64,000 nucleotides of DNA from Heptranchias perlo (Eukaryota), in contig NC_090340.1 in the NCBI RefSeq assembly GCF_035084215.1, positions 15,376,001 through 15,440,000 on the forward strand, given 5' to 3'. The translations under genes and the position numbers were made by a program. The notes below the pieces were generated by a model. That model was not told the DNA's origin and searched no databases. It saw only the letters and a list, made by a program, of their open reading frames with translations. Shown here in pieces: positions 3,201 to 64,000 of the stretch (position 1 is its first letter; each line of letters opens with the position of its first letter).

Positions 3201-3393
3201 CCAAACATTGGCTTTTCAGGTAAAACAAGGGAGAGCCCGTGACAAGCTGACGTACGCGACTCTAGAATTGTCTGGCTCCGGGAAAGCGGGGAAATCTAAA
3301 AATAACCGGAAAAGCACAGAATATGCCGAGCTGCAAACAAAAAGACAAGGAGGAGTAACAGAGTTCGTCGACACAGAAGCAAGGACCAAATAG
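201..3393 (+). CDS. Gene A (5'-partial): IgSF inhibitory receptor, SIRP-like tail; TM exon plus 3 cytoplasmic exons
   Basis: GT-AG exons 201-311 (TM: DRDGKYRYLWGVGCAVGELAFLVLIIIIGTRCNLTNK), 2350-2393 (RKQESVTTSHHHEEL), 2912-3013 (GAQNEIAPYAALDLSKAKKSPGRKREEERAAYAQ) and 3220-3393 (VKQGRARDKLTYATLE...STEYAELQ...ARTK*). They join in frame and match gene D exon for exon. The ectodomain exons would lie upstream of the window. Confidence 0.85.
765..1992. repeat. Long inverted repeat: arms 765-1131 and 1626-1992
   Basis: The ~367-bp arms are reverse complements with scattered mismatches, e.g. aattcatccgcccagatgaaaatgttcccc / ggggaacattttcatctgggcggatgaatt. Confidence 0.9.
984..1395 (+). mobile_element. 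tRNA-derived SINE with CR1-type tail
   Basis: tRNA-like head; body and AATAAATGCTG...GAATGAAT tail similar to 13532-14003. Confidence 0.7.
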
Positions 3394-28670: not shown

Positions 28671-30354
28671 ATCCAATTATCCCCCCAAGCTCTCTTGTTG
28701 GGCTTTTTACATACTGTGTAAGAAAGGAGTCCTGCACACATTGTAAAAACTCAATTCCCTGTACCGTTTTACCTACCCCTTCTTGCCAGTTTATCTGTGG
28801 ATAGTTTAAATCTCTCATGATTATTATTCTATGTCCTTTATTCATTTCACATATTTGCTTACATATTTCTTCTGCCACCTCCTTTCTACTATTAAGTGGT
28901 CTGTAGTATACCCCTATTAGCATGACTGATCCCTTCTTACGTTTTGTTTCAATTCATATGGATTCTGTTTCGATCCTTCTGTTAGTTATGTGCCATTTTC
29001 TACTGCCCTTATGTTATCTCTAATTAGTACAGCTGCTCCACCCCCTTCTTCCTTCCCTATCCTTTCTGATTATGTTGTAATCTGCAATAGATAGTTGCCA
29101 GTCCTGCTCTTGATGTAGCCATGTTTCAATTATTCCTACTGCATCTGGTTCCTCGCCACTGATGTAACCTTTTGTACATGAAATTCCCATGAGATAATAT
29201 TATTGACTAAAATGAAAGCCTAAGCAACTGTTGCGTAGGTAAAGAAAGTAAATGCAGCCATTCCTTATACTAGACCAGCGCACATGGAATAGTTAAATCA
29301 GGAACATTTAAAACGTTCTTGTGTTACATGAATGCTTTTTCACGCAAAGAGTAACGAATCTCGAGAACTCCCTCTCTCTCAACAGGCTGTGGATGGTGGG
29401 TCAATTGAAATGTTCAAGATTTAGATCGATAAATATTTGTTGGAAAAAGGCTTTCAAGGAATTTGGAGCAACAGCAGGTAAATGCTGTTCAGCTACATTT
29501 CAGGCATGATCTCATTGAATGGTGGAACAGGCTCGAAGGGTTGAATGGCCTACTCCTGTTCTTATGCTTGACTGGATATGTAAAAGACAACTGTATGCCA
29601 TTTCCAAATAACTCAGGAATGCACCTTGTGATGTGATACAATGCCATACATCAATAATTTGCATTTATATGGCGCCTTTAACTTAGAAAAAGGTCACAAG
29701 GTTCTTCACAGAGATGTAATCAGACAAAAATCTACAGATCAGGAAGATCTCGGTTTGAATCTCTAGTCTGTGCTGGAGTACCTAATTTCACTCAGTCAAT
29801 AGTAGAACACGACAAATGACCTTCGTCTCCTCTGGGCCAAGAAGAAGGAGAATCAGCTTGGGCTTCCATTCTTGGTCATTCTCCTCTGACTTCCAACCGT
29901 CGGTCTCACGTGAGGATAAAATTTGTAAAATTAATTCCTTCCTCCAGATAAAAGGTGTCACTATGGGAACCAGTATGGGTCCCAGCTATGCCTACCTTTT
30001 TGTGGGATATGTGGAACATTCCCTGTTCCAGTCCTACTCAGGTCCCCTCCCTCATCACTTTTTCCGGTGCATTGATGACTGTATCAGTACAGTTTCCTGC
30101 TTTTGCCCCAAACTGGAAAATTTCATTAACTTTGCTTCGAATTTCCACCCTTCCCTCACCTTCACATGATTCATCTCAGTCTCTTCCCTTCCCTTCTTCG
30201 ACTTCTCTATCTGCATTTCTGGGGATAAGCTATCAACCATTATGAGCCCACCGACTCCCACAGCCACTTTGATTAAACTTCCTCCCACCCCGCTTCCTGT
30301 AAGGACTCTATTCCATTCTCCCAATTTCTCCGTCTCCGTTGCATCTGTTCTAAC

Positions 30355-33300
30355 ATTTTTTTTATTCGTTCACGGGATGTGGGCGTCGCTGGCGAGGCCA
30401 GCATTTATTGCCCATCCCTAATTGCCCTCGAGAAGGTGGTGGTGAGCCACCTTCTTGAACCGTTGCAGTCCGTGTGGTGACGGTTCTCCCACAGTGCTGT
30501 TAGGAAGGGAGTTCCAGGATTTTGACCCAGCGACAATGAAGGAACGGCGATACATTTCCAAGTCGGGATGGTGTGTGACTTGGAGGGGAACGTGCAGGTG
30601 GTGTTGTTCCCATGTGCCTGCTGCTCTTGTCCTTCTAGGTGGTAGAGGTCGCGGGTTTGGGAGGTGCTGTCGAAGAAGCCGTGGCGAGTTGCTGCAGTGC
30701 ATCCTGTGGATGGTACACACTGCAGCCACAGTGCGCCGGTGGTGAAGGGAGTGAATGTTTCGTGTGGTGGATGGGGTGCCAATCAAGCGGGCTGCTTTAT
30801 CTTGGATGGTGTCGAGCTTCTTGAGTGTTGTTGGAGCTGCACTCATCCAAGGAAGTGCAGGAGTCTTCCTGTACTGCATCCATGTTCATGATGCTGTGTG
30901 CCTGGCATTGACTTCATCCCCTACTGCCTCCCACTGTATTTTGGTTGTATATCTGGAGGGCCTCTTGCTCCCCCAGCCCCCCCCCCCCCCCCGGCCCCCC
31001 CGTGGATAAAGGATGTCCCTCCATCTGTCCACCTCTTGCACCAAGGCCTCTGGTGCATCAGAAGAGAACCTTGGGGCATGGACTCTCAGGTCGGCAGATT
31101 GGTGAGGTCTGGCATGCAGATTGGAGGATGTGGGATTTAGTGGTGCACAACCTTTATTCAAACATAACTCATCAGTATGTAAGTATAGGGATGGGATCTG
31201 CGTCTGTGCTTTATGTGTGCGATGTCTGATCTCCATTCAGACTCCGTGCAGACAGCAGGCTGTTACATTCAGCAAATAACAGGTGCTACCTTCATGAGAT
31301 TTCTAACAGACAGCCTGCCTTTAAGAGATTGGAGCTCACCTGCAGGTGGAAAGTGCGAATTGCATGGAATCCTTGTCCAACGCTGATTTCCAACGCAGAT
31401 TGCAGTGAGTCCTCAGGCCTGACGAAAATCTCGTCCTGCCTTCACAGGGGCCATTGGGCGAGAACACCCCTGACTTGTGCCTTGTAGATGGGGGAAAGGC
31501 TTTGGGGAGTCAGGAGGTGAGTCACTCGCCACAGAATACCCAGCCTCTGACCTGCTCTCGTAGCCACAGTATTTAAATGGCTGGTCCAGTTCAGTTTCTG
31601 GTCAATGGTGACCCCCAGAATGTTGATGGTGGGGGATTCGGTAATGGTAATGCCGTTGAATGTCAGGGGGAGGTGGTTAGACTCTCTCTTGTTGGAGATG
31701 GTCATTGCCTGGCACTTATCTGGCGCGAATGTTACTTCCCACTTATGAGCCCAAGCCTGGATGTTGCCCAGGTCTTGCTGCATGCGGGCTCGGACTGCTT
31801 CATTATTTGAGGGGTTGCGAATGGAACTGAACACTGTGCAGTCATCAGCGAACATCCCCATTTCTGACCTTATGATGGAGGGAAGGTCATTGATGAAGCA
31901 GCTGAAGATGGTTGGGCCTAGGACACTGCCCTGAGGAACTCCTGCAGCAATGCCCTGGGGCTGAGATGATTGGCCTCCAACAACCACTACCATCTTCCTT
32001 TGAGCTAGGTATGACTCCAGCCACTGGAGAGTTTTCCCCCTGATTCCAATTGACTTCAATTTTACTCGGGCTCCTTGGTGCCACATTCGGTCAAATGCTG
32101 CCTTGATATCAAGGGCAGTCACTCTCACCTCACCTCTGGAATTCAGCTCTTTTGTCCATGTTTGGACCAATGCTGTAATGAGGTCTGGAGCCGAGTGGTC
32201 CTGGCGGAACCCAAACTGAGCATCGGTGAGCAGGTTATTGGTGAGTAAGTGCCGCTTGATAGCACTGTCGATGACACCTTCCATCACTTTGCTGATGATT
32301 GAGAGTCGACTGATGGGGCGGTAATTGGCCGGATTGGATTTGTCCTGCTTTTTGTGGACAGGACATACCTGGGCAATTTTCCACATTGTCGGGTAGATGC
32401 CAGTGTTGTAGCTGTACTGGAACAGCTTGGCTAGAGGCGCAGCTAGTTCTGGAGCACAAGTCTTCAGCACTACAGCTGGGATGTTGTCGGGGCCCATAGC
32501 CTTTGCTGTATCCAGTGCACTCAGCCGTTTCTTGATATCACGTGGAGTGAATCGAATTGGCCGAAGACTGGCTTCTGTGATGGTGGGGATATCGGGAGGA
32601 GGCCGAGATGGATCATCCACTCGGCACTTCTGGCTGAAGATGGTTGCAAACGCTTCAGCCTTGTCTTTTGCACTCACGTGCTGGACTCCGCCATCATTGA
32701 GGATGGGGATGTTTGCAGAGCCTCCTCCTCCCGTTAGTTGTTTAATTGTCCACCTCCATTCACGACTGGATGTGGCAGGACTGCAGAGCTTTGATCTGAT
32801 CCGTTGGTTGTGGAATCGCTTAGCTCTGTCTATAGCATGTTGCTTCCGCTGTTTAGCATGCATGTAGTCCTGAGTTGTAGCTTCACCAGGTTGGCACCTC
32901 ATTTTTAGGTACGCCTGGTGCTGCTCCTGGCATGTTCTTCTACACTCCTCATTGAACCAGGGTTGATCCCCTGGCTTGTTGGTAATGGTAGAGTGAGGAA
33001 TATGCCGGGCCATGAGGTTACAGATTGTGGTGGAATACAATTCTGCTGCTGCTGATGGCTCACAGCGCCTCATGGATGCCCAGTTTTGAGCTGCTAGATC
33101 TGTTCTGAATCTATCCCATTTAGCACGGTGGTAGTGCCACACAACACGTTGGATGGTGTCCTCAGTGCGAAAACGGGACTTCATCTCCACAAGGACTGTG
33201 CGGTGGTCACTCCTACCAATACTGTCATGGACAGATGCATTTGCGACAGGTAGATTGGTGAGGACGAGGTTAAGTAAGTTTTTCCCTCATGTTGGTTCGC

Positions 33301-33910
33301 TCACCACTTGCCACAGGCCCAGTCTAGCAGCTATGTCCTTCAGGACTCGGCCAGCTCGGTCAGTAGTGGTGCTACCGAGCCACTCTTGGTGATGGACATT
33401 GAAGTCCCCCACCCAGAGTACATTCTGTGCCCTTGCTACCCTCAGTGCTTCCTCCAAGTGGTGTTCAACATGGAGGAGGACTGATTCATCAGCTGAAGGA
33501 GGACGGTAGGTGGTAATCAGCAGGAGGCTTCCTTGCCCATGTTTGACCTGATGCCATGAGATTTCATGGGGTTCAGAGTCAATGTTGAGGACTCCCAGGA
33601 CTACTCCCTCCTGACTGTATATCACTGTACCGCCACCTCTGGTGGGTCTGTCCTGCCAGTGGGACAGGACATACCCAGGGATGGTGATGGAAGAGTCTGG
33701 GACGTTGGCTGAAAGGTATGATTCTGTGAGTATGGCTATGTCAGGCTGTTGCTTGACTTGTCTGTGGGACAGCTCTCCCAATTTTGGCACAAGTCCCCAG
33801 ATGTTAGTAAGGAGGACCTTGCAGGGTCGACTGGGCTTGGTGTTTTGCCGTTGTCGTGTCCGGTGCCTAGTGGTCCGATGCCGGGTGGTCCATCCGGTTT
33901 TATTCTTATT
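30355..33910 (-). mobile_element. Young CR1-clade LINE (APE endonuclease + RT)
   Basis: ORFs 33287-33790 (EN: LTESYL, TYRPP, GDFNVH), 31442-33190 (582-aa RT: YRPIS, LDIKAAFD, GVPQGSVLGP, FADD) and 30418-30879 (C-terminus), with an A-rich tail. Confidence 0.95.
30866..31460 (+). repeat. 595-bp direct repeat, copy 2, inserted in CR1 ORF2
   Basis: See copy 1. It splits the CR1 reading frame between YKAQVR and WMSAAPTTL. Confidence 0.95.
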
Positions 33911-36214
33911 ATGACATTACTACCTTCCGCACCAGTGCTTCTGATATGTCTTCCTTTTTCCTCAACCGAGGATTCCCCTCCACTGTAGTTGACAGGGCCT
34001 TCAAACCGTGTCCATCCCATTTCCTGCATTTCTGTCCTCACCCCATCTCTTCCTTCCCTACCTGCCTCCACATTAAACGAATCACCCACTGTCATTTCCG
34101 CCACCTCCAGTGCGATCCCACCACCACTTGGTATCTTCCCCTCCCCTCCCCTTTCAGCATTCCAAAGGGACTGCTCCCTCCACGACACCCTAGTCTACTC
34201 TTCCATCACCCCCAACACCCGCTCTCCTCCCCAAGACACCTTCCCGTGTGAGCACAGGAGATGCAACACCTGCCCCTTCACCTCCTCCATTCCCACCGTC
34301 CAGGGCCCCCAACGCTCCTTCCAGGTGATACAGCGGTTTACTTGTACTTCTTTCAAATTAGTATACTGTATTCGCTGCTCACAATTCGGTCTCCTCTAAA
34401 TCGGGGAGAACAAACACAGACTGGGCGATTGCTTTGCTGAGCACCTCCGCCCTGTCCTCAAGTGTGACTCTGACCGGCAGGTTGCTTGCCATTTCAATTC
34501 CTCTTCTCGATCCTGCTCTGACATCTCTGTCCTCAGCCTCTTACATTGTTCCAATGAAACTCAACTTAAGCTTGAGGAACAGCACCTCATCTTTTGTTTA
34601 GGCACTTTACAACCTTCCGAACTCAACATTGATTTCAGTAACTCCAGACCATAACCAATGTTCCCGTTTTTTCGGTCAGCTAGTGCTGGTAATGGTTCTG
34701 CTGCTGCCATTTACAGCTATTCCTGAGCAATCTTTCGTTTCTTAACCTGTCCCATTACCATCTTCCTTGTCTTGCACCATCATCCCTTTTGTCATTTAAA
34801 TACTTGTGACCTCTACCCTATCACAGACCTTCTCTTTCGTTCTTTCCTCCCCTTCCCTGTCTCTGTACTTGCTCGAAAACTTTAACACTTTTAAACATCT
34901 TCCAGTTCTGACAAGAGGTCTTCGACCTGGACCGTTAACTTTGTTTCTTTCTCCACAGATGCTTCCTGACTTGCTGAGCTTCTCCAGTATTTTCTGTTTT
35001 TATTATAAAATTGGTAGAGTTGGATGGTTTCCCGAATACACACGCACACATATAGGCATGCGCGAATCTCCGTCTTAAATGGGAGACCCCTTATTTTTAA
35101 ACTGTGTCCCCTAGTTCTAGTCTCTCCCACAAGGGGAAACATCCTCCCCTTCAAGTCCCCCCAGGGGACTATATTACACTACACTTTAAGATGAACATTT
35201 ATCGCAAGCTTATTCAATGGCTGTATTCACCACTGCGCCAAACAGCGTGTTTGACGACTGGACTGTATCTGTTTGCGATTTGATGACATCACTCTCTGGT
35301 TGCTTCCTGTTTAAATTAGCACCGAATCTCTCACTGATTGGTTAGGGTCTCATAATATTCCCTACCTTCATGTGGCATTTAAAATTAACTGAAATATTTC
35401 ATATTCTGACTTAATTAATATTGAAAACTTCTCAACTTGAAATCGAGTAGTTGAGAAATTGTACAAATGCAGACAACTGAATCGATTTTGCAACGTTACT
35501 GGGTACCCGTCGACAGGTTCCCTTCTGTAATGCAAAAGAAAGAATTTGCTTCTATATGGCGCCTTATCATTTCCTCCGGACATCCCAAAGCGCGTCACAA
35601 CCAATTAGTTACTTTTTTCAGTGCAGTCATTGTTCTTACCTTGGCAAACGGACAGATAATTTGTGCACAAGGGCCCACAAACAGCAAAATTAGGTGAATG
35701 ATCACTTTGATCGGTTAATTCATTTTAAGTCCTGATTGTTGCAGGTAGAATGTTGGCCAGGTCACCAGGAGAACTTTGTTCTTGTTCCAAATAGCACAGT
35801 GCGATATTTCACATGCAACCGAATCACCAGACCAGGGAGACAGAGTTTAAGTTTAATGCTTCTTCCGAAAGTGTAGAATGGGACAATGCTGCACTCCTTC
35901 CGTACTAACATGCTGGCTGTGGATAGAGGCAGAAATGAAACCAGCATGGATTGATAATATAATTCAACTACTGAAGACTTCTTATTCATGATGGAATGGG
36001 CGATACTGAGCATGGAATGCTAGATCTTGAAAATTGCGGCACTTATGACATATAAATAGATATATGATATATAACACATGTAATGAATCATTTACTTTAT
36101 AAAACATTTAAAATAAGCTAGTTTACATATACACCAGTAAGCTGTCGCCACGTGATGAAACTGGGTGTAAATGGAAATAATTAAAATTGAATTATCTTAT
36201 AATAAACAGTAAGT

Positions 36215-44156: not shown

Positions 44157-47100
44157 CTAATGATAGGCTCTCGAGGAATTATGAGCAGCAGAGACAGAGA
44201 TTGTCAACCGTCCTTTACCTGAAAATTAAAAATAAAATTCAGAACTGTATTTTTTAATAATGTAACTACTTTGATAATTTAGTCTATTTTTCATCCACAT
44301 GCGATGCCCATCTGTGCATGTCAGCATCAATATCATTAGGCTCATAGGCACACTCACCACTGTACCAATATCATTAGACTCAGATACACATTCACCACTG
44401 TATCAATATCATTAAACTCAGAGGCACATTCACCAATGTATCAATATCATTAAATTCACAGACATATTCACCACTGTATCAATATTATTAGACTCATAGG
44501 CACACTCACCACTGTACCAATATCATTAGACTCAGAGACACATTCACCACTGTATCAATATCATTAAACTCAGAGGAACACTCACCACTGTATCAATATC
44601 ATTAAATTCACAGACATATTCACCACTGTATCAATATCATTAGACTCACAGGCACACCACTGCACCAATATTATTAGATTCATAGACACACTCAAAAGCA
44701 TCAATATTATTAGACTCACAGACACTCATCACTGTATCAATATCATTAGAATCACAGCCACACTCCCACTGCATCAATAGCAAACTATTATTACATTAGA
44801 GGAACGTTCTTCAATTATATCCTCTCATTGTAATTCGACAATAATTATAAAAGTAATCTTACACTAAATCAGTGTTGGACTAAGACAAACTTTCCCCAGT
44901 GCTAAACAAATATGCCAACATCTCAGGATGTCAAAAATATTAAGATGCAAAACTTACATTTCTGTTTTAACGTTCATTCGTCGGTACTCTATTACTCGTG
45001 ATTATTGTGTATGTGTAATTGTGTACTTTATCTTCTTTATATTAGGAGGCAACCGATGACCTAAATCATAACCGATGTCGCATTGGTGGGTTTTCACTGC
45101 GCCCAGTGTGGAGTGACATTGAAACAAAGATACCGCTCTTAGATATAAGAATATCTGAGTGAAACTCTTCAGTCTGCACTCACTTCAAATCTAATGCTCC
45201 CTTGCACACATATAATAATTACATTTTCTCACTGAATTAAGATACAACTTAAGGAACCCATACACATTAGAAGACGCCCGCTCGGATTGCCAGTCTCTGT
45301 TGTGTTATATGGGGGGTAATTTTAACCCCCAAGAACGGGTGGGTTGGGTGTGGGTGGGAAGTTAAAAATAGTTGGTATTTTTTGGGCCGCGATCGCAAAT
45401 TTTCTGACTTTGCATTCCCAGTGGGAAGCCTATACTTTTATGCGCCCACGTTAAACCCGGAAGTGGAGCCGGGTTGCGGTCACGACCCAAAAATCAACTA
45501 TTTTCAACTCCCACGCGCCCCCAACCCACCCGTTCTTGGGGGTTAAAATTACCCCCCATGGTCTCAGTTCTAGTCGCAGTTGAAACGCTAAATCTGGCCT
45601 GGGCGTTCAGGGAGAGGAAGAGGGCAATTAGCATGAATTCCTGCTTCTGATCGTTATCTCGAAGCCGCTGCGGCAACATTCCAGTCTGATGAGGACTGAA
45701 TTGGGCTGGACCATGAGATGCCCGTCCACATTAATTCTCTAGACCCACACGTGAACATTGGCACGTTGGGGGAAGGTATGGAGGGCTGTGAAGGCTGTGG
45801 ACATCCCTTGAGAAGGGAACAAAAGAGGAGAAACTCGCAAAGTAATCACACTAAAGCAGCTCACTCTGAAAGGCATGTATAGCGGATTAAAGAACAGTCG
45901 GAGGACACTGACCCCGCAGTTGTTACAGATGTTAATGCAATATTAACAAAATCACTCGGAAAATGGCGCCTGCGATAGGAATCCTTCAACCCTACATATA
46001 AACCTTGGAAGATACAAGGCAGAAGTTGCATTTGTATCGCACCTTTTACGACAACAGGACGTTCCAACGAGCTTCAAAACCATTGAAGTACCTTTCAAGT
46101 GTAGCCATTAATGTAATGTTGGGAAAAGCAGCAGCAAATTTGTGCATAGCAAGGTCCCACAAAGAGCAATGAGATAAATGACCAAATATTCGGTTTTAGT
46201 GAAGTGGATGGAGGGATAAAAATTGGCCAAGACACCGGGGAAACTCCCCTGCTCCTCTTCGAAATAGCGTCATGGGATCTTTTATGTCCACCCGAGAGGG
46301 CAGACGGGCCGCGGTTTAAGGTCTTGTCGGAAAGTCGGTGCCTCTGACAGAGCAGCACTCCCTCAGTACTGCGCTGAAATATTAGCCTAGATTTGTGCTC
46401 AAGTCTCTGGAGTGAGAACTTGAACGCACAACTTTCTGACACAGAGCGAGGAGCTACCACAAGGATCAAAACTGCATCCGATGTTCAGCGTTCACTATTT
46501 GAATCATCCTATAACAAACTGAGCTAAATATGAAAATTATTGTGCTAAAGGTATCGGTTTTCCATGTTGTCTGCAATTTGGTACCAAAGCGTTTTAATCA
46601 GCAATTTTAAATTACATAAGAAACAGCTGACTAAAGCACATTTCCATCTCCATACCGCCAATTTTATCTGTGTATATGCTTTCAAGGTGATTTCCCGAAT
46701 TAATAAAGCATTCTCTTACCTTCAATGGAAGATATTTTTACGTGGTCCACAATAATACCCGTCAGTGCAAGAATTACCAAAAAAGCCAGGAGAAGCCGAA
46801 CAATCATGATGAGCGAGATGCTTAAACTGTGACCTACGGTGTTGGATTAGAATCAAGATTTTAAAAAACTATTGGATATAAGTATTATTGAATGGAAGCA
46901 ACAATGATTAGTTTATACGGAGGAATTGGGTCCATTAAATGCCTAGTTTAAACCGCACTCCATGGGGGTCGATTTGAACTTGCCTAAATTGGCGTTAACC
47001 ACCTCAAAATAGGCTCGGTAGATTTACCACCTTGTTAACGCCAAGCATGGCGCCTTCCACTTTAAGGGCTGGCCTATTGTTGGGGACAAGCACCTGTTTG

Positions 47101-50100
47101 TTTCAGGCAGTCGGCTCCCGTTCATATCCAAATCGGGGTTCTATGATGTACACATGACCCCGATTGTCATTTTAGGATAGAACTGGTGCGCCCTGCACTA
47201 TCTGGCCATTTTACTAGCGATTGTAGATTAAGAGGCCCTGACCAGACAAGTTTTAAATTATTTTTGTGTGGCCAGGAAGAGCAGGACTGCCCCTCTGGGC
47301 CCCACACAACATAATCTGGGCCACTATAACCCTCGCTCCACCTTCCGCGATCGTAACACCCCGATTTAGCATGCTGCCTACTGACAGGTCTGGGCCGCCC
47401 TGCGCGCTGCATCAACGTCAAGAATCCTGATTTTCCCTAAAGTAGCCTGGGGTTGACTCCCCTCATGGGGGTCTGGTTCTCAACGGCACAGGGGAAAAGT
47501 GCCAAATTTTCTCCTTCTGAACTGCCATTTCGATGACTCCTTAATTTTACTCTAAGATCTGCAGGGAGAGAAACTGTTCCGAGCCCATGACCATAATGAT
47601 AGCTAGAATTGATTTAGAAGCAATGCGTCATGCCTCACCAATCTACAAGCACCTGAGGCGAGAAGTGGCAAAGTGGATGAAGGCCACCCAGGTGGTAGTT
47701 TACTTATAATTTTGAAAGATACGTGAGAAAGGTCTGCATGTGAGGCATCTGAAGGAAATTCAGGCTCATGAAATTCCGGTAGAATTGGAAAGTGATAAAT
47801 GGACAAATCGTTTCGTTCCCTGTCTGGGGAGCAGTAGAGTTCTACTGGTCCATTCTAGGTTCTGTGCTTTGAAGTCGATTAATGAAAAATATTGACGTGT
47901 CACTTCTAGTAATACTCCTAGATGTGTTGATGGTGTCAATGTATGGATAGGTGAGAAGTTGGTTAATAATATTCAAATAAATCTGGGCCCTCGAAAGATG
48001 TTGGCGGCAGTTTTACGCACAATCTGTTCCAATCTTACCTTTAACGGTGTAGCTGACACCGGCGGGCACCACAAGAGAGACATGAGATACCAAACAGGTA
48101 TAAACAACCCCGCTGCGGGCAGGCTGTACTTCTTCCAAAAAACTGGAAACCTCGTATAGTCCTTTGGCGGTCCTGTTTTTCACAGTTTCTATTCCAGTCA
48201 GAATTTCGACACCATCTCTTCGCCAGGAGATTCCTAAATGCTCCGGGTAAAAGGCAGCCGTTTTACACTCGAGTTTCAGAGAAGCCGGTAAAATCCCTTC
48301 AATAGGAGCGATTTCCAGGGGGGTTGGGGAAACTTTAACAGAAAAGAGTTGTTCCTATTAATCCCTGTGTATTTATTACTGTATAATTTGTAACTGTAAC
48401 ATCGCAATCTTACCTGAAACTATAAATGCATGGGTGCAGATTTATTATTTTCTATCACAGTTCGTACATGATTATTACAGTCGAATAGCCAAATTTCACC
48501 AGGCGCGTTCACGGGCACGAAACCATGGGAAAGTGAATTTTCTACCGCCGTTGGTTATTAGTTTTTAGGTAGAGTCCATATCTCTGAGCAAGTGTTTGCA
48601 ATTTCGTAAATAGTCGTCCTGTACATTAAGACACCACGGCGCATGTGGAAGGTCGGTTTGGAATCTCAAGGCTGCATTGTTATGAAAAACCGTTTGCTCT
48701 GTCTGGGTGAGATTCTCCGACACTGGCCCAGTGAGATAACACACTGTACTCAGGATTTGGGGAACTCATGAAAATTATTTCTGCAGGGCAGAGGCTGACA
48801 CCCTACCACACTACATTCTTTTTCCGAAATAAAATCCAGAATCTTACATTTTTAAAAACCTGGAGAGAAATTAAAGCATTTCGATTTTGAGGGGGCAATT
48901 GATCAATTTTTAATCATTATTTTAAGCATTTGATATTGAGCCACTAACATTTTAACAATGAAAACATGAGCTGACATCCATCCCAGCAATTAAATCATCA
49001 ATACCATAGCATATTATAAAAATATTATGATTGACCCGTGCAATACCCTTTATTCCACATCATTGATCAGTCGTGCTCCTTGAAAACACCACAGAAGTTA
49101 TATCCTGGATAACTAAACGGAAGAAAATCTATCTCTTATGTCTCTATTCCATGGGCCCTCCTAATTCCTTGCAATATCTTATGGCAAAGTTCTACCTTTC
49201 CTACATTACAAAATGCAGATCCTATTCGCCCAGTGAACATATGTAGATAATTACTTCGAGAGCAAGTCAAGACAATTTGGGCGACAAATTCGTCCTGGGT
49301 CCACAGTTCACAGCGGGCGACAGCGAATTTGCAGCCCGTTTTTCACTCAGCTTGATTGACCTCAATGGAGAAGAAAACCGGGCGGAATGTAAAACGGACT
49401 GCCGATTACTTATCGCCTGTAATGCGCTACCGCGCAAGTCAGATTTATACCCCAATACCACTTTGCTGTGAACAATGTCAATGGAATTCTTCTAGGTAAA
49501 CACTGTGAATATTTCACCTCTAGCATTAATCCCAAAAAACATATTTTAGGATCCTCACCAATACTTAGACCCCCCCGCTTAGGCTAAGGCATCAAGCACA
49601 GGCCCCCAGAATGGTGAGATCTTTGGGCACTATCTCAAGATCTGAAGAAGTGTGCTGTGTTCTGAGTCAGAGCTTAAACAACTACCTTCTGATGATTAGT
49701 CCAACATAGCCGTTCGATGCGAGGTATAACAGAGAAGATACTTCAGCAGAGTCAACCTTACCTCCAAACTGTTGGATGCTTTAGACCATTTTTGAGCAGT
49801 TAACGTCAGTTAATTCAACCCCAAGATCGTGTTCCAGAGCTTTGGGGTTCTGTAAATTACGCTGTTCCCTTCTCTATGGAAACAATTTGAATTTTGCCTC
49901 CTTTAGTTAGTAGAGAATTATGTTTACTAACTCTCCAAGTGTTTAATCAGAAAAAATCCCCGTGACCCAAGCTTATGTCATCTTTCCAGTTGGTGAGCCT
50001 GAGCCCATTGGAAGAACACCCTCACTGGGTTTTCTCTCTTTTGGCTGAAGCATGGCTTATAAACTGCCCTCACATTACTGTGAGGGTTTCATCCGGCAAG

Positions 50101-52710
50101 GATGCCTCAAACGCCACTTTTTCCTGTGGGTGTTTATTGATTAGTATCTCTAGCATTAGTATGAATATGGAATCGAAGATGAATTCGTGGTTCATTCTTC
50201 ATTTCGGAGATGTCTTGTTCCGTGAGGATGATTCGAGTATGATCCGAGACCACTTTTTGGTCAATACTTGGACCATGTCATGACCTATCTCCTCTGACAC
50301 CCAAAAGATTTTATTTTTTAATACACCCTGTGACACTGGGAATACTAGGAATATAGTCCCATGTACTGGGTTGGTATATCCTCAAAATATCCGCCAGGCC
50401 CATCTCACTGCTAAATATAGAAAATATCCCTTCGACAACAACATAATTTTTACAATTCCTTCGGGAACGGTCCAACAGCAGATCTGAAGCAAGATTAAAA
50501 TTAACACCTTTTATAATTGACAGTTTAGGTAACTCTACTTTACACACTATTCGGGTATTGTGTCTGCCCATTATTAGGGACAAATACATTAACTAGAATT
50601 AATCTATCATTACAATATATCTACCCTCCAGAGCTTCGGTGTTCCATTATAAATGTACTCGACTTATGAATTAATATTACCACTCTAAATTTCCTCAAAT
50701 AAAAAAGGTCAATGTATTTCCTTCACGAAGGACTTCTTGGATTTTGAAGACCCTTTCTCATCAAAGTGGATCCGCTGTAGGAAGGCTACTCCCATCTTTA
50801 ATCGGCTTAAATATTGCCAAGGTTTAACGCAGTTCCGTGAATTTTGGATTCCCTTCACAATCCTGGTGATCAGCTTAATACGGGTACTACTGATCATCTC
50901 TGTGTTTTAAATTTGAAATCCTTGACCTGCATCCCCTTGACCCACCTCCAGTTACCTTAAACCTGAAAGCAACCTGTAGTCCCTAGGAGACATAAAATGC
51001 ATGTCGATTGTTCATTTACCGATTTCGCGCTACCAGCAGGAATTCTCGTCTGGCTGCTTTGCAAATTGAGAGATTGCGGGCAGTAGCATGAACTCGGAAA
51101 ATTAACTGTAAAGCAATAAGGGAAATTCTATCAAACTGTATCAGACGCTGCTGCACCTCATTGATGTCGGGGAAGTTCCTTAACTGAATACTTTCCGTGC
51201 TTCAGTTGCCGTACTTCCTTGTTGCCTCAAGGATCTTAGGTTTTTCTTGGAATCTGAGCGTTTTGAAAATGATTGTTCTTGGGGATTTGTGCATTATAGC
51301 AGGAGCCAGGACCCCCTCCATTTCCATCTTTGAAGATTCTGATCGCACCCGAAGCTCTGATAAGATACCTTGAGGATAACCTATGGTAATCTTCTCTTCC
51401 ACCACTCTGGAAGATTAACCAGTTGAAGATTATTATTCTTGGAGTGAATTTTCAAATCCCCTTTCTGAATTGTCAACTGCTGGCGGTATTTTCCTTCAGC
51501 ACATCAATCTCTTTCAATACCAACTCTAATGGATCTTCTGCCCCTAACAGCCTTTCCTCCAGCTCTGTAATCTATTTTCAGTCAATTTCTTTCTGAGAAA
51601 GGATATATCTTGCTAGGCCCCACTCTTGCTTTTATTTATGAAATTTGTGTGCGTGTGGGTGTTTATCGCCCTGATCCTCGTTTTAACACAAAAGCTTAGA
51701 CCCCATTCCCCGCCAAAGAGCAGCGTTACGAATGGATCATTAGCAATGTGGAGGCAGTTGGAGTATTATTACCTGAAAATAATTATAATTTATAAATTAC
51801 TCCGCTTTGAATCAATTTTATTATAATAATATCACTTTTCACGAGTCTGGTGCGATGACTGCATGTACTCGTATACGGGGCATACAACAGGGGCTAACTG
51901 TCCTCTTACCTATTAATATTCATTATTTTATTATATCCCATTATGTTTCAACGAGATTACATTCTGCATTTAAAATGCGTATTTAAAGTATGATATAAAA
52001 TTCGGTGCTTAATACACATGTAAAAACACAAATGTGAAAGTGCTGCAGATTCTTTAAAATGGTTGTCCATCCCTTAATTTTGCTGAGTTTTAAATATAGC
52101 TGAAACTCTCCGACTCCCCCGTACAATGACACTTACCGTACACAGTAAGCTGGGAGCCAGCTCCATCTCCAATAGATTTTTCCTGATGTTTTACTTTACA
52201 GTAATATATTCCGGAATCGTCGATACTCACATTCACGATATCAAAGGAACCACTTCCCTTTTTGACATTAAATTGCTTACTGTTATCTGGTTCCAGGAAC
52301 TTATTCTCGCCCCGTCTCCACCAAACAACATCGGGAGCATCTTGAAATAGGGGAAAAGTGCAGAACAAGGAAACATTTGCACCTCTGGCAACATTCACGT
52401 GTTTCGGGAATTGTTCCACTTTGCTCGAAGTTACTTCGACGTCTATCAAAAAATAAACAAGAAAACTGATATAATAGTGTGTACTTTCAGGGGGAAAAAA
52501 CAACAATTACGACTTAGAAATTTAAAAACAAGAAAATTAGCCAAATTAATAAAATAATGAGAAAGACGGAAAAAAGAAATGTGCACAAAATATGACGACT
52601 TTTTAAACACCAGATTTTTTCGATAAGCATAAAGCTGTAAGATGAACAAACACACCTGTGTAAATAATTCCGAGTAAAGATATGCACAAAAGTGCGGCGC
52701 TCACCGCCAT
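44157..52710 (-). CDS. Gene C: leader-VJ-TM(Arg)-short tail; NKp30/NCR3-like putative activating receptor, about 178 aa
   Basis: GT-AG exons on the minus strand: 52710-52656 (MAVSAALLCISLLGIIYT), 52442-52137 (V), 46833-46720 (GHSLSISLIMIVRLLLAFLVILALTGIIVDHVKISSIE) and 44218-44157 (GKGRLTISVSAAHNSSRAYH*). Total 537 nt, in frame. The last exon begins GK like the first cytoplasmic exon of B and D. No intact C1 exon was found. Confidence 0.72.
44326..44780. repeat. Minisatellite, 38-bp unit, about 12 copies
   Basis: Approximate unit CAATATCATTAGACTCAGAGGCACACTCACCACTGTAT. Confidence 0.95.
45311..45557. mobile_element. MITE with ~90-bp terminal inverted repeats (Harbinger-like GGG...CCC ends)
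   Basis: ggggggtaattttaacccccaagaacgggtgggttggg ... cccaacccacccgttcttgggggttaaaattacccccc. Confidence 0.85.
46020..46470 (-). mobile_element. Deu-domain SINE (SacSINE1-like)
   Basis: tRNA-like head, GAAGAGGAGCAGGGGAGTTTCCCCGGTGTC core and L2-like tail. Confidence 0.75.
48414..48780 (-). pseudogene. Decayed C1 pseudo-exon inside gene C intron 2
   Basis: Collinear fragments in shifting frames match gene D C1: CYLTGPVSENLTQT vs CETAEFYPENFTLT, IYEIANTCSEI vs LYEVSSTLEET, KFTF vs KYTC. It ends in a CAG|gtaagat donor identical to the gene B C1 donor. It contains stops and frameshifts. Confidence 0.55.
49950..51610 (-). mobile_element. Decayed L1/Tx1-like LINE (ORF1 3' part + endonuclease)
   Basis: PRTIIFKTLRFQEKPKILEATR (L1 ORF1-like); KGIQN..LKMGVAFLQ and GVNFNL..LDRS (APE-like). 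Confidence 0.6.
52137..52442 (-). CDS. Gene C VJ-type Ig V-domain exon
   Basis: LFCTFP...VWWR...IVNVSIDDSGIYYC...GDGAGSQLTVY; canonical splice sites, phase 1-1. Confidence 0.92.
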
Positions 52711-56863: not shown

Positions 56864-59800
56864 CTATTTGGTTCTTGCTTCGGAGTAGGCAGCCTCTGTT
56901 ACTCTTTGTTTTTTTGTCTGCAGCTGGGCATACTCTGTGCTTCTTTCGTTATTTTTGCATTTCCCCGTTTTCTCTGAGCCAGTCAATGCTAGAGTCGCGT
57001 ACGTCAGCTTGTCACGAGTTGCCCTTTGTTTGATCTGTAAAGCCAATTTAGAAATTTTGTAAATTGGTCGTTTTGCCAGTTTGTGGACTGCTGCTCAAAG
57101 CAGTCATCAGAAGAACATACAAACAGCCTTAGATACAACACATGGCCAAAGTCAGCACAGACATATGCCCGGCACTATCGCATGAATGCTGATGTTACAC
57201 TGGTGAGCTATGTTTCTCTGATCTGTTTCTCAGCCCTACCTGAGCGTACACAATCTTCTCTTCTCGTTTACCTCCTGGAGTTTTCCTGTCTCTGGTCAAA
57301 TCTAATGCAGTATAATGCAGTATCTCAGCCTCTGCTCCCTGCATGGGCCAGAAAGCGAATGATTGGTTATGTGGGCTGTTCATTGCCTTCACCAGTTTAC
57401 GTACTGCTAATCAAACATTGAACAGAATTACCTGGGCTGGAGGTCCAGTGCACAAATCATAATTAATATATTGGCTTAAGTGCGAATATTAAGGCCGGTG
57501 AGTGCTGTGGTCAATGTGACTAATATTTAAACCTGTCAAAATTCACTCTTCAACACTGTGTTACAGAAATATTTAAATAAGCATAAAGGTTTTTTTTCAA
57601 ATACAAGAATAGATGAATCTATAAACAATTATTACCGAGGTACATTTTCAATGAAACTGGCAGTTTTCTTTTCCTCTATTTATCCATTTTTACCAGCAAA
57701 GCATCGGATGTCAAATACGTTTCTAACCACGATTTGAATGATTCACTAAGACCGAATAAATATTTTAGTAAATTGACTTAAACTGTTCTGACATGATTAT
57801 GATAAAATCTCTCCATTATAGCAATCTTTCTTCACATTTGAGCCCTCTGGAGAGGACGAATGAATGAACGTACCAGCTCTTCACCACGGGTCGGTCCCAC
57901 TGCACGTCCCTGTTTACCTGGAAACGAATGAAATTAATGATATTGAAAGATTGAAATATTTACTCAGTTTCCATGTTAGTGACGTCAAAGACATTTCTAG
58001 AGTCCGTACAAAACCGAACATGATTTTCAATTTCAGATTGGACTGACAGTGTTAGAATCCCTGTCCTTGCAGCGATCCGCAATGGTGTAAAACCATTCCT
58101 CTTCGGAGCCTCACACCGATTCACTCAATCTAGTTGCGCCTCCACAACGGGATGGGTTGATAGGTGATTGTGTGTCAGGGTACATTTAATTTATCACGCT
58201 GCAAAGTGGACATTTCTGTTGCAAATACCCAGCTAATTATTTCCATTGCTAATGCGACTCTGTGAGGATTTCTGCGTCTTAAAGTGTATTTGGAACAATC
58301 TGCGCTTCCTGAAAACAGATAACACCGCCTTCAACTGGAAGTCTTAATCGAGTTCTCCTTCCCGTGTGTTACCCAGAGACTCTCACTAACCCTGAGGTTT
58401 CGGACTAAAATCAAACCCTTACAGTAGATCTTACCTTCATTATTCTGCAATCGGCACCGCCTCCCAATGAAGACCATGAGCACGAGAAACGCCAATCCAC
58501 CCACCGCACAGGCAGGAGCCCAGAAATAAAGGGACACATCAATGACACTAGCTGCAAGATTAATAGGAACACTAAGTTATGCCGGGCGTTTGCTAAAAAG
58601 AGGCCTGAAGATAGTTTATTGGTTAAACTATAGTTGATGCTTTCAGTAACTCTGCAGTACAGAACGGCAATAATGAATTTTAAATAAAAATATTATATTT
58701 TTAGATATATTTGAAGTAACTTATTCATTGAATGAGCGAGATATTCTGGATTAATCTGCGAAGCGGGCAACCGGTTTAGGGATCTCAAAACACTGTTTCA
58801 GGAGAGTAAGAATGTGAGAGTGATAAATTTCCCTGGACCGAATGGCGTGTTCTTGTCCTTGACCTTTCTTATTTATTAACATATAGTTTGAAGAAATCGG
58901 ACGGAATTTGGTCACACCCGTTCCCCGCACTAAATTCTGGATTGCAGCAATCGGCTAAAAACCCCATTCAATTATCCGCAATGTGATTTTTAAAGTAAAA
59001 ATGTCACTGAGTAGTAAAGGAAATCAACGGACGATGTTTTATTGATTATTGTCTGTCGAGGCTAAGAGTTCTTAATAAAATGATGCATTGAACCGGCTGT
59101 ACTGTAGCCAGGTTTCGGGCCCAGTTTAATTGAGATTTGTGCGACAGGTCCCAATCGAACCCACAGTGGCATGGAGAGGGGAGGGTTAAAAGTTGGACAG
59201 AGAGTTCATTTCAGAATTTTGCACTAGAAGTAGCAGAAAGGGGGATCAGGATCGAAACTGCATTGGGAGAAGCCCGTGATCAGACAAATTGACTGCAGCT
59301 CCTTTTAACAGTCTTCATGCAGGGATAGCCGGCAATGGTAAAGAATAAAACCATTTTGACGTGGAAACAAAAAAAGTGAAAAATTATTAATAGTAAGCAG
59401 GAGAGGAAAAATAATCGGATACAAAAGATTAACTCTTGTTTATATTTGTTATACGGCAAATAGAGGAATTTGAAGACAGATAGGGTGTAATTGAGAATAT
59501 TTGTGTGGCGGACGATATAACCCGGGTTCACAACACATCGTGTTCAAATATGTTATATATTAAAACAAGAATTTTATGTTTTCGTTGATATTTTCCACGA
59601 ACTATCTTCCTGATTATCAATATGTACAAACTCTACGATGTAGCTCATTGCGAATTTGACAGTAGCTGGACTGTTGGCCTCGTACCTGGGTTAGATTTAG
59701 TATAGGTGATAACAGCTGGAGTCTCGAGGGAGACATGAGATACCGAGCAGGTATATTTGGCGCCGCTCGAGACAGGCTGCGTCTCTTCCAAAGTGCTGGA

Positions 59801-62004
59801 AACTTCATACAGCCCCTCAATGTTCTGCCGTTTAACGGTGTGTATTCCTATTGCAGTTTCGACGCCATTTTTATACCAAGTGAGGGTGAAGTTCTCCGGA
59901 TAAAACTCAGCCGTTTCACACATAAGAATCTGAGGCGCAGATGAATTCACTTCAGCTGTCAGAGAGACAATAGTCAGTGGAGTTGGGGCAGCTGCGGAAC
60001 AGAAAATGAGCAAAATCGAGTTATCGGACACCATTGGGAGAAATATGATTCTGATTTACCTTCGGTCCATTTTATTTTAACAGCAACATTCCAAAGCACA
60101 GCCTCCTGTCGCTTTAATGTTAGGCACATCATCTACACACACCTCATCCATTTCTCTCATCGCCGCCGGCATCTGTTCAATTTTACCTTCGCTCTCGAGT
60201 CCAAGACATTGAGATATTCAACAGACACGTCACAACGATTGTCTGCGTTTCATAACCCAAATAATTAAATAAATAAATTCTGGGGGAGAGATGTCATGCC
60301 CAGTCCCTCCATGTTTGGTACTCACAGATAGACAGAGACAAGTAAGCTGCACGTTGTCGATGATAAAACGAGGGTATTAGTCGGTATCGGACAGATCTCA
60401 CAGCCGAGGCATGACAATTGGTGAAAGAAGCTATATTCGGTGGAAACTTAGACGGTTTCAGCAACACAGTTCCTGCGTATTGTATTTATTGGGGGTTAGT
60501 GAGGTGACAACGTTGTGAATTCCGAGCTCCAGTTTGTTGAGTGAATCCGTTAATCAACAGTTAGTCGCACGCTGGCTTTCAAATCCGTGACGCGAACGAG
60601 CCAATCATCATGTGAGAATTAATTTCGGGAATGATAAATCCCAGAGACAGCGGTGGGGGCAGACAGAGCTTCCAATTATATTCTCTGGCGTTTAGCAGAA
60701 TGAGAGGTGATCTCATTGGAACATATAAGATTCTAAGAGGGCTTGACAGGGTAGATGCTGAGACGATGTTTCCCCTGGCTGGAGAGTCTCGAACTTGGGG
60801 GCATAGTCTCAGGTTAAGGGATCGGACATTTAGGACTGAGATGAGGAGGAATTTCTTCACTCAGAGTAGTGAATATTTGGAATTCTCTACCCCAGAATGC
60901 TGTGGATGCTCAGTCGTTGAGTATATTCAAGACTAAGATCGATAGATTTTTGGACTCTGAGGGAATCAAGGGGTATAGGGACCCGGCGGGAAAGGGAGTT
61001 GAGGTCGAAGATAAGCCATGATCTTATTGAATGGCGGAGCAGGCTCGAGTGCTGTATGGCCTACTCCTGCTCCTATTTCGTATGTTATGTTCTTTTGTTC
61101 AAAATGGGCTAAGAGGCCTGTATATGGTGGTTAAGGCTCATTAATATAAACAATATTCATTTAAATTTATTCCGAACTTCCGCTATCAGACATCTGGTGT
61201 ATAGATTGTATTTGGAGTTATAGTCTATCTGGTTAATATTGATACTTCTTGCAGCATTCTGCGTATGAAGGGTTACATTGTATGTTTAATTAGCATTTCT
61301 ATACAGAGAACACGAACATACAACTTAACTTTCTCGCGAAATGTAATATAAATCATTATACTGTCAAAATTTGTACAATAAAACAATTTTAAAACATCCC
61401 CGTTTGTTGCGTTGGATATATTTGCGATAGTCCAGTTCTCCAGTGTTTCACACTCACCATGCACAATTAGATGTGATCCGGTTCCATTCCCTCGAACTAT
61501 ACCCTGACGCATCACTGCGCAGTGATAGATTCCAGAATCTTGGAAAGTCGCGCTCAGCAACTGAAAGAAACCGCTCGCTTTACTTTTCAGACCGAATCGT
61601 TTTCTGTCATCGGCGCTTGTGCGCAGGTATTCATTCTCACCCTGTTTCCACCAATGCACTCTTACCCAGGAATGGTCTTGAGAGATGGGGAATATGCAGT
61701 AGAAGGTGATGTTTCCCCCTCTGGATACAGACGCTTGTTCGGGCGCTTGAGTCACTCTGAATGAAGTGTGGTCCACAGCTACAGAAAACATAGTCAAGTA
61801 CGGATTAATTTTATTCGATGGGACATGGAGGTGAAAGAGAGAAAGAAGAATCGATATAGAGGAATTACCGTTCACTAAATTAATGTGGAAACTATTTTTA
61901 GGAAGCATTTTATAAATTAAAGTAGCTGCTATAGTGAATAAAGAGGTACCTGTGCAAATAATCCACCGAAGAGTCAGGCAAAGAAATAACAAATTCGTCC
62001 ACAT
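56864..62004 (-). CDS. Gene D: leader-VJ-C1-TM-four ITIM/ITSM-type motifs; SIRPalpha-like inhibitory IgSF receptor, about 370 aa
   Basis: GT-AG exons on the minus strand: 62004-61950 (MWTNLLFLCLTLRWIICT), 61778-61458 (V), 59991-59686 (C1), 58551-58435 (TM: LYFWAPACAVGGLAFLVLMVFIGRR), 57917-57874, 57338-57240 (LHYTAL...IVYAQ) and 57034-56864 (I...LTYATL...TEYAQL...AYSEARTK*). Total 1113 nt, in frame. Confidence 0.9.
59686..59991 (-). CDS. Gene D Ig C1-set exon
   Basis: ILMCETAEFYPENFTLTWYKNG...KYTCSVSH. Confidence 0.92.
60672..61092 (+). mobile_element. CR1 3' fragment in the gene D V-C1 intron
   Basis: RMRGDLI..TWGHSLRL..RRNFFTQ; 3' UTR GGCCTACTCCTGCTCC. Confidence 0.85.
61458..61778 (-). 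CDS. Gene D VJ-type Ig V-domain exon
   Basis: FYCIFP...HWWK...QDSGIYHC...GNGTGSHLIVH. Confidence 0.92.
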
Positions 62005-63639
62005 TCTGAGCAATAGATTAAACAGTAAGTGTGAGTTTGCAACTGTTAAGAATGGTTTGCGGTTTGTTTCCTATGAAATACGTCGCAATGACGTTTGACA
62101 TCCTGTAACTGCGACTTCAGAAATTAGGCTTCGTTTGTTAAGTGGGATTTTCTAACTTCTGTACTTATTCAACTGCTGAAATCACATCTGTCACAGACAG
62201 CAAAGAGTAAGAGAAAATATTTGATTTTCAAATGCATAATTTACTAAAACTGGAGGAGTCAGTGTTGTTTCCTGATGATTTAAGATGCCGGAATGGAGGT
62301 GCGAGAGCGATATTCCTGGGGTGAATTTCGCAAGACGTTGATGCGTACATTGACCTTCCTCTGCCAACTACTTTAACGTGACCTAATGCCAAATCAATAC
62401 AAAGTAGGTACTATCACAGGTCGCTCATAATCAGCCTTTGAATAATAAGCAGCAATATTTTCTGAGAAACGTTGGTAAGAAAAAAAAATGGACTGATTAA
62501 TGCGACAGTTATCCGTGTGCAGACTGTTTACTATAAGTTCACAATTCCGTGCACATCCCAGGTGATATTAGACCGATGCTGTGCTTTGTAATGTGTTGTA
62601 CCCCGGGAGACTTGACACAAATCCGAACTGAGTAATGTGAAAGGTGAAAGATCAGTGATCACGTGATCGTGTGCCTTGTCGTGCGATTGGGTGTTGATGC
62701 TGGTGCAGGAAACCGTCCATTGTGACGTGCTGAGTTGTTGTAACGTCGTTCTATGGGCAGCTGGATGAAGTTGCAAACCGCGAGCCTCTTTGTTATCAAT
62801 TGTTCATCTCTATATTTCTATAACTTTCCGTCGTTCAAAAAGCACACGTCGTACGATCCCATTATATAGCTGCAGATGTGTCCTTGAAGTCTAGATATAT
62901 GTGCAATTTTATTGTCCTGTTATCAGCTCGCGGGTTCTGTCCAAAGCGAATACAATGCATTAATGGTAGCCACGTTAAAGTTGTGCAAATTGTGTTTATA
63001 GTGGTTATGTTACTTAGCTGAACACAAATTAGCCGCCTAAAGAGTTGCAAGTAAAACACTCAAGACCGAAGAATGTGTTAACAACAGTGAATGGTAATAT
63101 TCTTCCCACTCGAGGCTCTGGTGTGTTGCAGGCTTCATCACCGTTTGAAGCGTATCCCCTCAGAGAAGATATAGCGCAGAATTAAAAAAACATCTACGCA
63201 ATTAAAAATCTCGCATATTGCCCGTGTCCATGGGGACCAAACTTGAACAATATAGGTAAAACTTCGCAATCGGCAGCACGCCACAGATTAACACGTCATG
63301 CTTCTCTGATTGGTTCAGATAACCAATCTCCATTAAGTTTACCGGATTGATTTTTTCAGATATGGAGAGTAGCGAATGCAATAATACCCGCCCCCTCCCC
63401 ACAAAACCCAGCAACAACAAAAGCAACAATTTGCACTTACAATGTGCCTCTAACGTGGAAAAAAGACACAAGACGGTTCACAGAGCAGTGAGAAAAATAG
63501 GAGATGGAGCCAATAAAGGTGATATTAGGACCGAATGATTTCTGAAAGAGGGAGATTCTAAAGAGGCTTGTAAAGGAGAAGGGGCAGCTGGAGAGACCTC
63601 TTCAGGCAGAAGTCCCGAGTGGCTGATACTCCTCCTGAG

Positions 63640-64000
63640 GTCGCCACCGTCACAGATGCCAGTCATCAGCCAAATCGATTCACTCCATCTGATATCAAGA
63701 AACGGCTGAGTGCACTGGACAGATCAACTTCCCCGCTGTAGTGCTGAAGACCTGCTACAGAATTAGCCACACGTCCAGCCAAGTGTTCAAATACAGCTAC
63801 AACGCTGGCACCTACCCGACAAAGTGGAAAATTGCTCAGATATGTCCTGGCCACTAAAAGCACGACAAATCCAATCGGGCCAATTACCACCTCATCAGCC
63901 TGCTCTCAATCATCAGCAAAGTGATGCAAGGTGTCATCGATACTGCTATCAAGTGGCACTTAATGACCAATAACCTGCTCACTGATGCTCAGGATCAAGA
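63640..64000 (+). mobile_element. CR1 RT fragment (runs off the window)
   Basis: Similar to the 582-aa RT (RFTP.DIKKRLSALD; KWKIAQ.CP). Confidence 0.8.

Follow-up and report, generated by a model that had tools for sequence, protein, structure and literature searches.

The pairing of activating and inhibitory receptors that share an ectodomain is an already known principle. The SIRP family (SIRP-alpha, SIRP-beta1 and SIRP-gamma) follows it with a V-C1-C1 ectodomain; SIRP-beta1 has a Lys in the middle of its transmembrane (TM) helix and works with DAP12, and the SIRP genes are linked to NSFL1C.

For other systems, excerpts of the cited papers give the following picture. In CD89, an Arg close to the top of the TM helix makes the contact with the FcRgamma dimer, and His can substitute for it; NKp30 and NKp46 use zeta-zeta or zeta-gamma dimers, and an Arg near the TM top pairs with the paired Asp of zeta or FcRgamma dimers (PMC13107469). 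The marks of an LRC-type TM are acidic residues at its C-end, the Asn of an NxxR motif and DYT (PMC6557307), and in Xenopus such a TM is found on unrelated receptors (FCRL, SLAM) that associate with FcRgamma (PMC2413239, PMC4536121). The non-rearranging VJ(-C1) genes in print include NKp30/NCR3, PRARP and UrIg (PMC10751288, PMC12227049, PMC11599192), and NKp30 couples to CD3zeta through TM charge (PMC12272517). The ectodomains of Siglec-11 and of Siglec-16 remain alike through repeated gene conversion over a region of about 3 kb and several exons, in genes about 9 kb apart, and the activating allele is often non-functional (SIGLEC16P) (PMC5701461). In cartilaginous fish, the skate MDIRs form a multigene family of activating and inhibitory Ig receptors (PMC3031540). 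No publication on a paired VJ-C1 family of sharks was found; Kinlein 2021, Flajnik 2012, Ohta 2019 and Fu 2019 could cover it, and it is not treated in the excerpts of PMC11372145, PMC6795676, PMC12272517 and PMC10450919.

The window analysed here is the stretch C18:15376001-15440000 (C18 is NC_090340.1; 64,000 nucleotides) of the 3.25 Gb genome of the shark Heptranchias perlo. Its plus strand carries the last part of gene A, followed by gene B, and its minus strand carries genes C and D. Within the window, genes B, C and D have one V, one C1 and one TM exon each, and gene A has its TM and tail exons only.

Like the NxxR receptors (CD89, NKp46, LILRA, GPVI, OSCAR and Xenopus XFL TM1, as excerpted), gene C carries its helix Arg near the outer end, has an acidic residue at the inner one and finishes in a short tail; unlike these and the LRC-type receptors, it has Met at position -3, no DYT and a VJ-C1 ectodomain. 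By analogy it likely works like an NxxR receptor, and it is not filed as an NxxR or LRC-type receptor because it is without the Asn and the DYT. Pfam finds a V-set and a C1-set domain in its product rather than C2, and none of the 18 Tweety-family matches, which would have indicated linkage to TTYH1, lies on C18. With SIRP, gene C shares a joined VJ plus C1 and the paired inhibitory and activating logic. Relatives in Heterodontus carry the RefSeq name 'PTPNS1-like', and P0004 has a match to the SIRP-alpha chain 2wng (E 1e-12) that is no better than its matches to UrIg2, IgA or titin. Unlike SIRP, gene C has a single C1 exon joined straight to the TM exon and Arg in place of Lys, and none of the four SEP-domain (NSFL1C-type) matches is on C18. 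A single-exon VJ domain and a VJ-C1 layout are shared with NKp30, PRARP and UrIg, of which NKp30 has one Ig domain and UrIg2 nine C1 domains, as against VJ plus one C1 in gene C; the VJ exon does not directly precede the TM exon as in NCR3/NKp30, since a C1 exon intervenes and is spliced in. The MDIR domains are, unlike those of gene C, of the CD300/TREM/pIgR-like kind in the excerpted account (PMC3031540).

The gene family and its surroundings

Used as a genome query, the C1 exon of gene C gave at least 102 matches, all on C18 (150 of 235 candidates scored), in two clusters at 2.7-6.0 Mb and 14.5-15.65 Mb with a further match at 19.0 Mb. The V exon gave 87 matches, 86 of which were on C18. 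Gene C belongs to a large family of predicted VJ-C1 surface receptors in sharks. The first cluster was sampled at nine stretches. In a scan of the flanks that compared 148 of 1561 unmasked ORFs with Pfam, matches to BBS2, to an Ndr-family gene and to a helix-hairpin-helix protein were obtained, and no MHC genes were recognised.

The RefSeq protein that matches the exons of gene C is P0007. Together with P0004, P0008, P0009 and P0011, it is a family member under an unrelated automatic name, the names given being Ig lambda-like, MHC class II beta-like, tapasin-related, NCR3LG1-like and PTPNS1-like. Several of these five models have doubtful N-termini; the odd names and the doubtful N-termini have thus kept the family hidden.

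The TM exon of gene A (201-312, plus strand) encodes a Glu where the close paralogues L043 and L044 have Gly, and its tail exon (3247-3333) keeps the motifs LTYATL and TEYAEL. The TM of gene B (19799-19918, plus strand) is of the neutral class with an Arg at the outer boundary, and an ITIM-type tail exon was not found downstream as far as window position 30000. Frames for a LINE-type endonuclease (209 aa) and reverse transcriptase (614 aa) were spotted by eye in the ORF list at 31445-33916 on the minus strand, flanked by two copies of another repeat at about 28.0-28.7 kb and 30.9-31.5 kb.

Exon structure and membrane module of gene C

The original prediction held that gene C has an Arg-bearing TM and a tail of about 30 residues without an ITIM, encoded by exons that are missing from the ORF track. 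These statements were confirmed: the TM exon is the one given in that prediction, the tail comprises 29 residues counted from the Asp after the helix, and neither exon is among the stop-to-stop ORFs of at least 85 aa. The positions of the exons are given in Table 1.

Table 1. Features of gene C, of its neighbour gene D and of the twin genes L029 and L035 (window positions unless C18 is named)
Feature	Position	Strand	Details
Predicted leader exon, gene C	52656..52710	-	ATG at 52710, hydrophobic, phase-1 donor; same exon upstream of paralogue L017
Germline-joined VJ-type exon, gene C	52137..52442	-	two Cys, Trp, J-like GxGSxLxV end; open frame, normal donor intact
New splice donor within V exon, gene C	52275..52283	-	exon end 52281, GT at 52280-52279
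C1-set exon, gene C	48039..48332	-	Pfam C1-set on P0007; RNA contig X2
TM exon, gene C	46720..46833	-	Arg at 46798-46796, 16 uncharged residues, then Asp-His at the cytosolic end
Last coding exon, gene C	44157..44218	-	19 full codons and stop; no ITIM
38-bp minisatellite, 12.2 copies	44326..44779	.	in the TM-tail intron of gene C
Neighbour gene D	56864..62004	-	V 61778-61458, C1 59991-59686, neutral TM 58551-58435, three tail exons, four Tyr motifs
L029	C18:15630441-15640440	+	neutral TM, five Tyr motifs of ITIM/ITSM type
L035	C18:14829205-14839204	-	D-type V and C1, C-type Arg-TM and tail; exons and splice sites intact

The TM exon is 114 nt long, runs from phase 1 to phase 1 and has AG/GT ends, and its helix contains Arg and no Lys. 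In the best Kyte-Doolittle windows of 19, 21 and 23 residues, the Arg falls at position 8, 5 and 8, respectively. The TM prediction proposed as a check on the helix therefore includes the Arg, which sits in the outer third of the helix. The only Tyr of the tail is its second-last residue, so that no YxxL/V motif is possible in gene C. Copies related to the minisatellite are present at the matching site in L028 and L035.

Transcripts of gene C

The RNA contigs come from three runs (X1, X2 and X3), all of one sample. The RNA nature of the runs is presumed, and the joints do skip the introns exactly. An X2 contig joins C1 to TM (47 letters on the short side) and an X1 contig joins TM to tail (48 letters on the short side), both at GT-AG sites and without a differing letter, which tells them apart from paralogues at 90-93%. 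The last exon, for which a cDNA check had been called for, is thereby confirmed in this one sample. The contigs run on 3' past the stop codon to at least 43400. An identical TM and tail are found in the RefSeq model P0007, which is unlikely to be independent of the RNA.

In both X1 and X2, V is joined to C1 at 48332/52281 and not from the normal donor at 52137; no other V-C1 joint of gene C was seen, and the internal one is used in two of the three runs. X3 has no cover on the gene C exons and the predicted leader is uncovered, and these blanks were not counted as evidence. Splicing from the new donor cuts 144 nt (48 codons) in frame and leaves 53 of the 101 V residues and one of the two Cys, the second (Cys81) being lost. 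The donor arises from one base change (ACA followed by GTAAGC in gene C versus ACA GAAAGC in L028 and L029), and it is absent from the paralogues L028, L029 and L050. The stretch 52137-52280 is covered by no RNA contig at 99% identity.

With half of V and the second Cys gone, the product would, by established Ig structure, not be able to fold as a V domain. The form of gene C represented in the contigs of one sample is without an intact ligand-binding domain, and the gene is probably disabled, the transcripts observed having half of V spliced out.

In one X1 contig, the start of the V exon is joined to 29 bases located 40 kb further upstream, with an in-frame stop and no leader, so that part of the gene C RNA is read-through. 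These non-coding bases lie at L014 (C18:15468208-15468236); the joint skips over gene D and falls within one base of a weak GT donor.

Gene C could alternatively be a working activating receptor paired with L029, in which the internal splice is one isoform and full-length mRNA is also made. All of its exons are open, a plausible leader is in place, and the normal V donor is intact and nearer the consensus than the new one, with the skipped frame still open; assembled contigs drop variants, and in X1 some cover of the V-exon bin at 90-99% is unaccounted for by the listed contig pieces. Against this, the sole V-C1 joint in X1 and X2 is the internal one, the V-bin depth in X2 is wholly accounted for by one 89-letter piece, and P0007 models the V exon with the identical cut. 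Furthermore, gene C has 11 private V changes (nine of them non-synonymous), as against three each in L028 and L029. Nine of the 11 lie at or past the new donor (the donor change itself and eight in the skipped 143 nt) and two in the retained 160 nt. The placing of eight of ten changes in the skipped part has a one-sided binomial p of about 0.04, a value calculated by hand and post hoc, and the surplus could instead represent a partial conversion tract. A working receptor is, on this evidence, rather unlikely.

The arginine class of transmembrane exons

Three genome searches, with one further exon found by script, gave a class of 29 TM exons, which is a lower bound. The Arg position is occupied by Arg in 22 of these, by His in four, by Gln in two and by Trp in one. 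At position +17 there is Asp or Glu in 22 and Asn in seven (Asp in gene C), and at position -3 there is Asn in four of the 29 (Met in gene C). Some class exons are broken, for example L007, which has an internal stop. The Arg is conserved in both C18 clusters. The tails of the class are short, and several stop no more than about seven residues from the Asp or Asn. In L028 and L035, the last exon resembles that of gene C. No ITIM-type motif was found downstream of the TM in L028, L035, L060, L065 or L066; L059 has one ITIM-type motif match downstream, which was not placed in an exon.

A profile built from 14 class exons found six proteins, five of the same species and one of Mustelus asterias (P0011), a V-C1 protein with a matching Arg...Asp-His helix. 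Neither phmmer with the gene C TM exon nor the TM-class profile found a non-shark protein, and the TM peptide of gene C had 0 matches in the PDB. Against 1.84 billion representatives, the peptide had one match, from the same species, a 37-residue hydrophobic query having little power; its Atlas matches were all below 0.8. A comparison of Arg-class with neutral-class TM exons for signs of a shared ancestry gave z values of -0.6 to 4.9 across 25 pairs against codon shuffles, which are a weak control.

An Arg in the outer third of the helix, kept in 22 of the 29 exons and present in Mustelus, and a short tail without a Tyr motif argue for a design of the activating type. The membrane module of gene C, with its Arg high in the helix and its ITIM-less tail, is likely activating.

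It is also conceivable that the Arg is located at the surface of the membrane without recruiting an adaptor, and that the class represents non-signalling or decoy receptors, of which SIRP-gamma is an example. Just 16 uncharged residues follow the Arg, the residues preceding it are polar or Pro in several paralogues, seven of the 29 exons are without Arg, the Asn of NxxR is mostly absent and no FcRgamma-like exon was found in the genome searches. However, the Arg is fixed 17 residues ahead of the acidic end and kept in both clusters and in Mustelus, the hydropathy windows include it, every tail read in the class is short, and the class occurs repeatedly on near-copies of inhibitory ectodomains. 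We consider a class of decoys improbable.

Four TM exons of the first cluster, L084-L087 (C18:4.0-6.0 Mb), have the full NxxR motif, and L088-L091, also of that cluster, have His in place of the Arg. L030, L031 and L042 (C18:14.74, 15.04 and 14.64 Mb, respectively) are C-type units of older date (C1 72-77%) whose helix contains an additional Asp; one of the three has Trp at the Arg site, the C1 of L042 is broken, and no V exon was found upstream of any of them in the DNA examined. L053 and L054 (C18:15.08 and 15.31 Mb) have an Arg-class TM, upstream of which about 13 kb contain no match to V or C1, and are possibly orphan TM exons; one of them has a stop within the TM exon.

A candidate adaptor

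The genome search with PF11628 gave two matches among 42 candidates, one an intact exon and the other a fragment. The intact zeta-family TM exon is L012 (C11:52321803-52321910), which as a genome query found itself only and which scored 46.3 bits against CD3zeta and 37.1 bits against FcRgamma. The second match, L013 on contig C1, was rejected as a fragment with no open exon context. In about 10 kb to either side of the intact exon, no ITAM exon of the zeta-like gene was found. Genome searches for ITAM (PF02189) and DAP10 (PF07213) gave no match and are uninformative on absence, and the searches that gave no FcRgamma-like TM exon do not prove the absence of one. The complex predicted for the gene C TM with two copies of the zeta-like TM had a score of 0.14 (mark 0.34), in a run whose controls were not folded, and was not counted as evidence.

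Should the partner of the Arg class be a zeta-family dimer, it is most likely CD3zeta, the candidate in hand. FcRgamma is doubtful as the adaptor of gene C because the sole intact zeta-family TM exon is nearer CD3zeta.

Twins with opposite tails

Gene C had been put forward as the activating counterpart of gene D. The activating-type design stood up as a prediction from sequence, and the pairing did not: C and D are 44% identical in V and 52% in C1, which refutes a pairing by near-identical ectodomains. Gene D is a gene of predicted inhibitory type, and it is spliced in the RNA contigs. The charged TM residue and the short ITIM-less tail of an activating partner are present in gene C, and the ITIM-bearing gene with a near-identical ectodomain is L029 and not D.

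L029 is 88% identical to gene C in V and 94% in C1, and lies about 200 kb away in inverted orientation. The near-identity of its V and C1 exons, which does not extend to introns or leader, holds for L028 as well. The motifs of its tail are SSYATL, TEYAAL, TVYAQV, LTYAAL and TEYAEV, and its leader, TM and tail match the inhibitory Heterodontus proteins P0005 and P0006. The similarity of gene C and L029 covers the V and C1 exons alone, reaching 29 and 53 bases past the edges of the former and 13 and 12 bases past those of the latter; dS is 0.048 for V and 0.042 for C1. For the V-C1 intron, the local score of gene C against L029 was 40 (24-28 in 10 shuffles), as against 5968 with L028, a tandem duplicate of gene C whose introns are 92.6% identical to its own. 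In the tree, the ectodomain of L028 groups with that of L029 rather than that of gene C (96/88). Near-identical V and C1 exons, barely alignable introns and this grouping of L028 together point to gene conversion limited to exons. Since the Heterodontus orthologue is inhibitory, we infer that conversion ran from L029 to the Arg-class genes.

L035 is 99% identical to gene D in V and 92% in C1, at a distance of 600 kb. Its 5' part aligns to window positions 58944-63997 (91.5%) and its 3' part to 44518-46895 (90.3%). Read from these alignments, L035 is a chimera whose two parts meet within the C1-TM intron, as would result from the loss of about 12 kb out of a D-C tandem unit, and it is the best candidate for the activating twin of gene D.

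The tree was built from 30 V+C1 rows out of 43 fetched units. L030, L031, L042, L045, L049, L050, L052, L053, L054, L056, L057, L058 and L064 were left out because V or C1 was missing or broken or the TM was unassigned; L051 was retained despite its broken C1. A single clade of the eight Arg-class ectodomain rows was rejected (p-AU 4e-35; seven changes), and four starred clades hold both TM classes (C/L028/L029, L035/D/L051, L065/L067 and L060/L062/L063). The label 'neutral' in the tree was assigned by TM class; Tyr-motif tails were read directly in D, L029, L062, L063 and A, and were not found for B, L061 and L067 in the stretch examined.

Gene D can hardly be the partner of gene C, even though the two are adjacent members of one family in the same orientation, D has a neutral TM, four Tyr motifs and spliced transcripts, and genes like D and like C are found repeatedly as one tandem unit, because, besides the low identity and the separate starred clades, each has a near-identical twin of the opposite type elsewhere in the cluster (L029 for C, the Arg-TM gene L035 for D).

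Discussion

We lean towards the reading that gene C is an Arg-module VJ-C1 receptor, that its near-identical predicted inhibitory twin is about 200 kb away and is not gene D, and that it has probably been disabled by the splicing of its V exon. An intact V domain of the Arg class would bind the same ligand as its inhibitory twin, which for gene C would be L029 at C18:15.63 Mb. Within the membrane, the Arg would pair with both Asp residues of an adaptor dimer of the zeta family, CD3zeta being the most likely one, and the ITAMs of that dimer would signal activation. Conversion limited to the V and C1 exons would have kept the ectodomains of gene C and L029 alike, and conversion and recombination at intron breakpoints, both seen as sequence patterns, may go on supplying activating twins. 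Gene C itself would have dropped out through its new splice donor, at which the joint is observed.

A parallel can be drawn with Siglec-11/16, in which, according to the excerpt, the pair is upheld by conversion and the activating partner often lost (PMC5701461). The putative shark tracts differ in being single exons with 12-53 nt, about 200 kb apart and inverted, and in belonging to an unrelated family.

A wider reading would make the cluster a non-rearranging VJ-C1 system of about 100 genes, in which an old Arg-TM cassette was refitted to inhibitory ectodomains by exon-sized conversion across 200 kb and by chimeras with intron breakpoints. Signalling through CD3zeta, the adaptor of the TCR itself, it would be the main NK-type system of sharks and a living model of the antigen receptor before RAG. 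This we regard as clearly unlikely.

Gene C taken alone is probably a modest finding, a decaying copy. NK-type receptors of sharks are poorly known, and the cluster offers two test pairs with near-identical ectodomains and opposite tails (L028/L029 and L035/D) as well as a candidate adaptor, so that the use of the adaptor and the sharing of ligands become directly testable. Both the making of activating partners, by conversion and chimera, and their loss, by the new donor in gene C, would also be visible in a cartilaginous fish, as they are in primate Siglecs.
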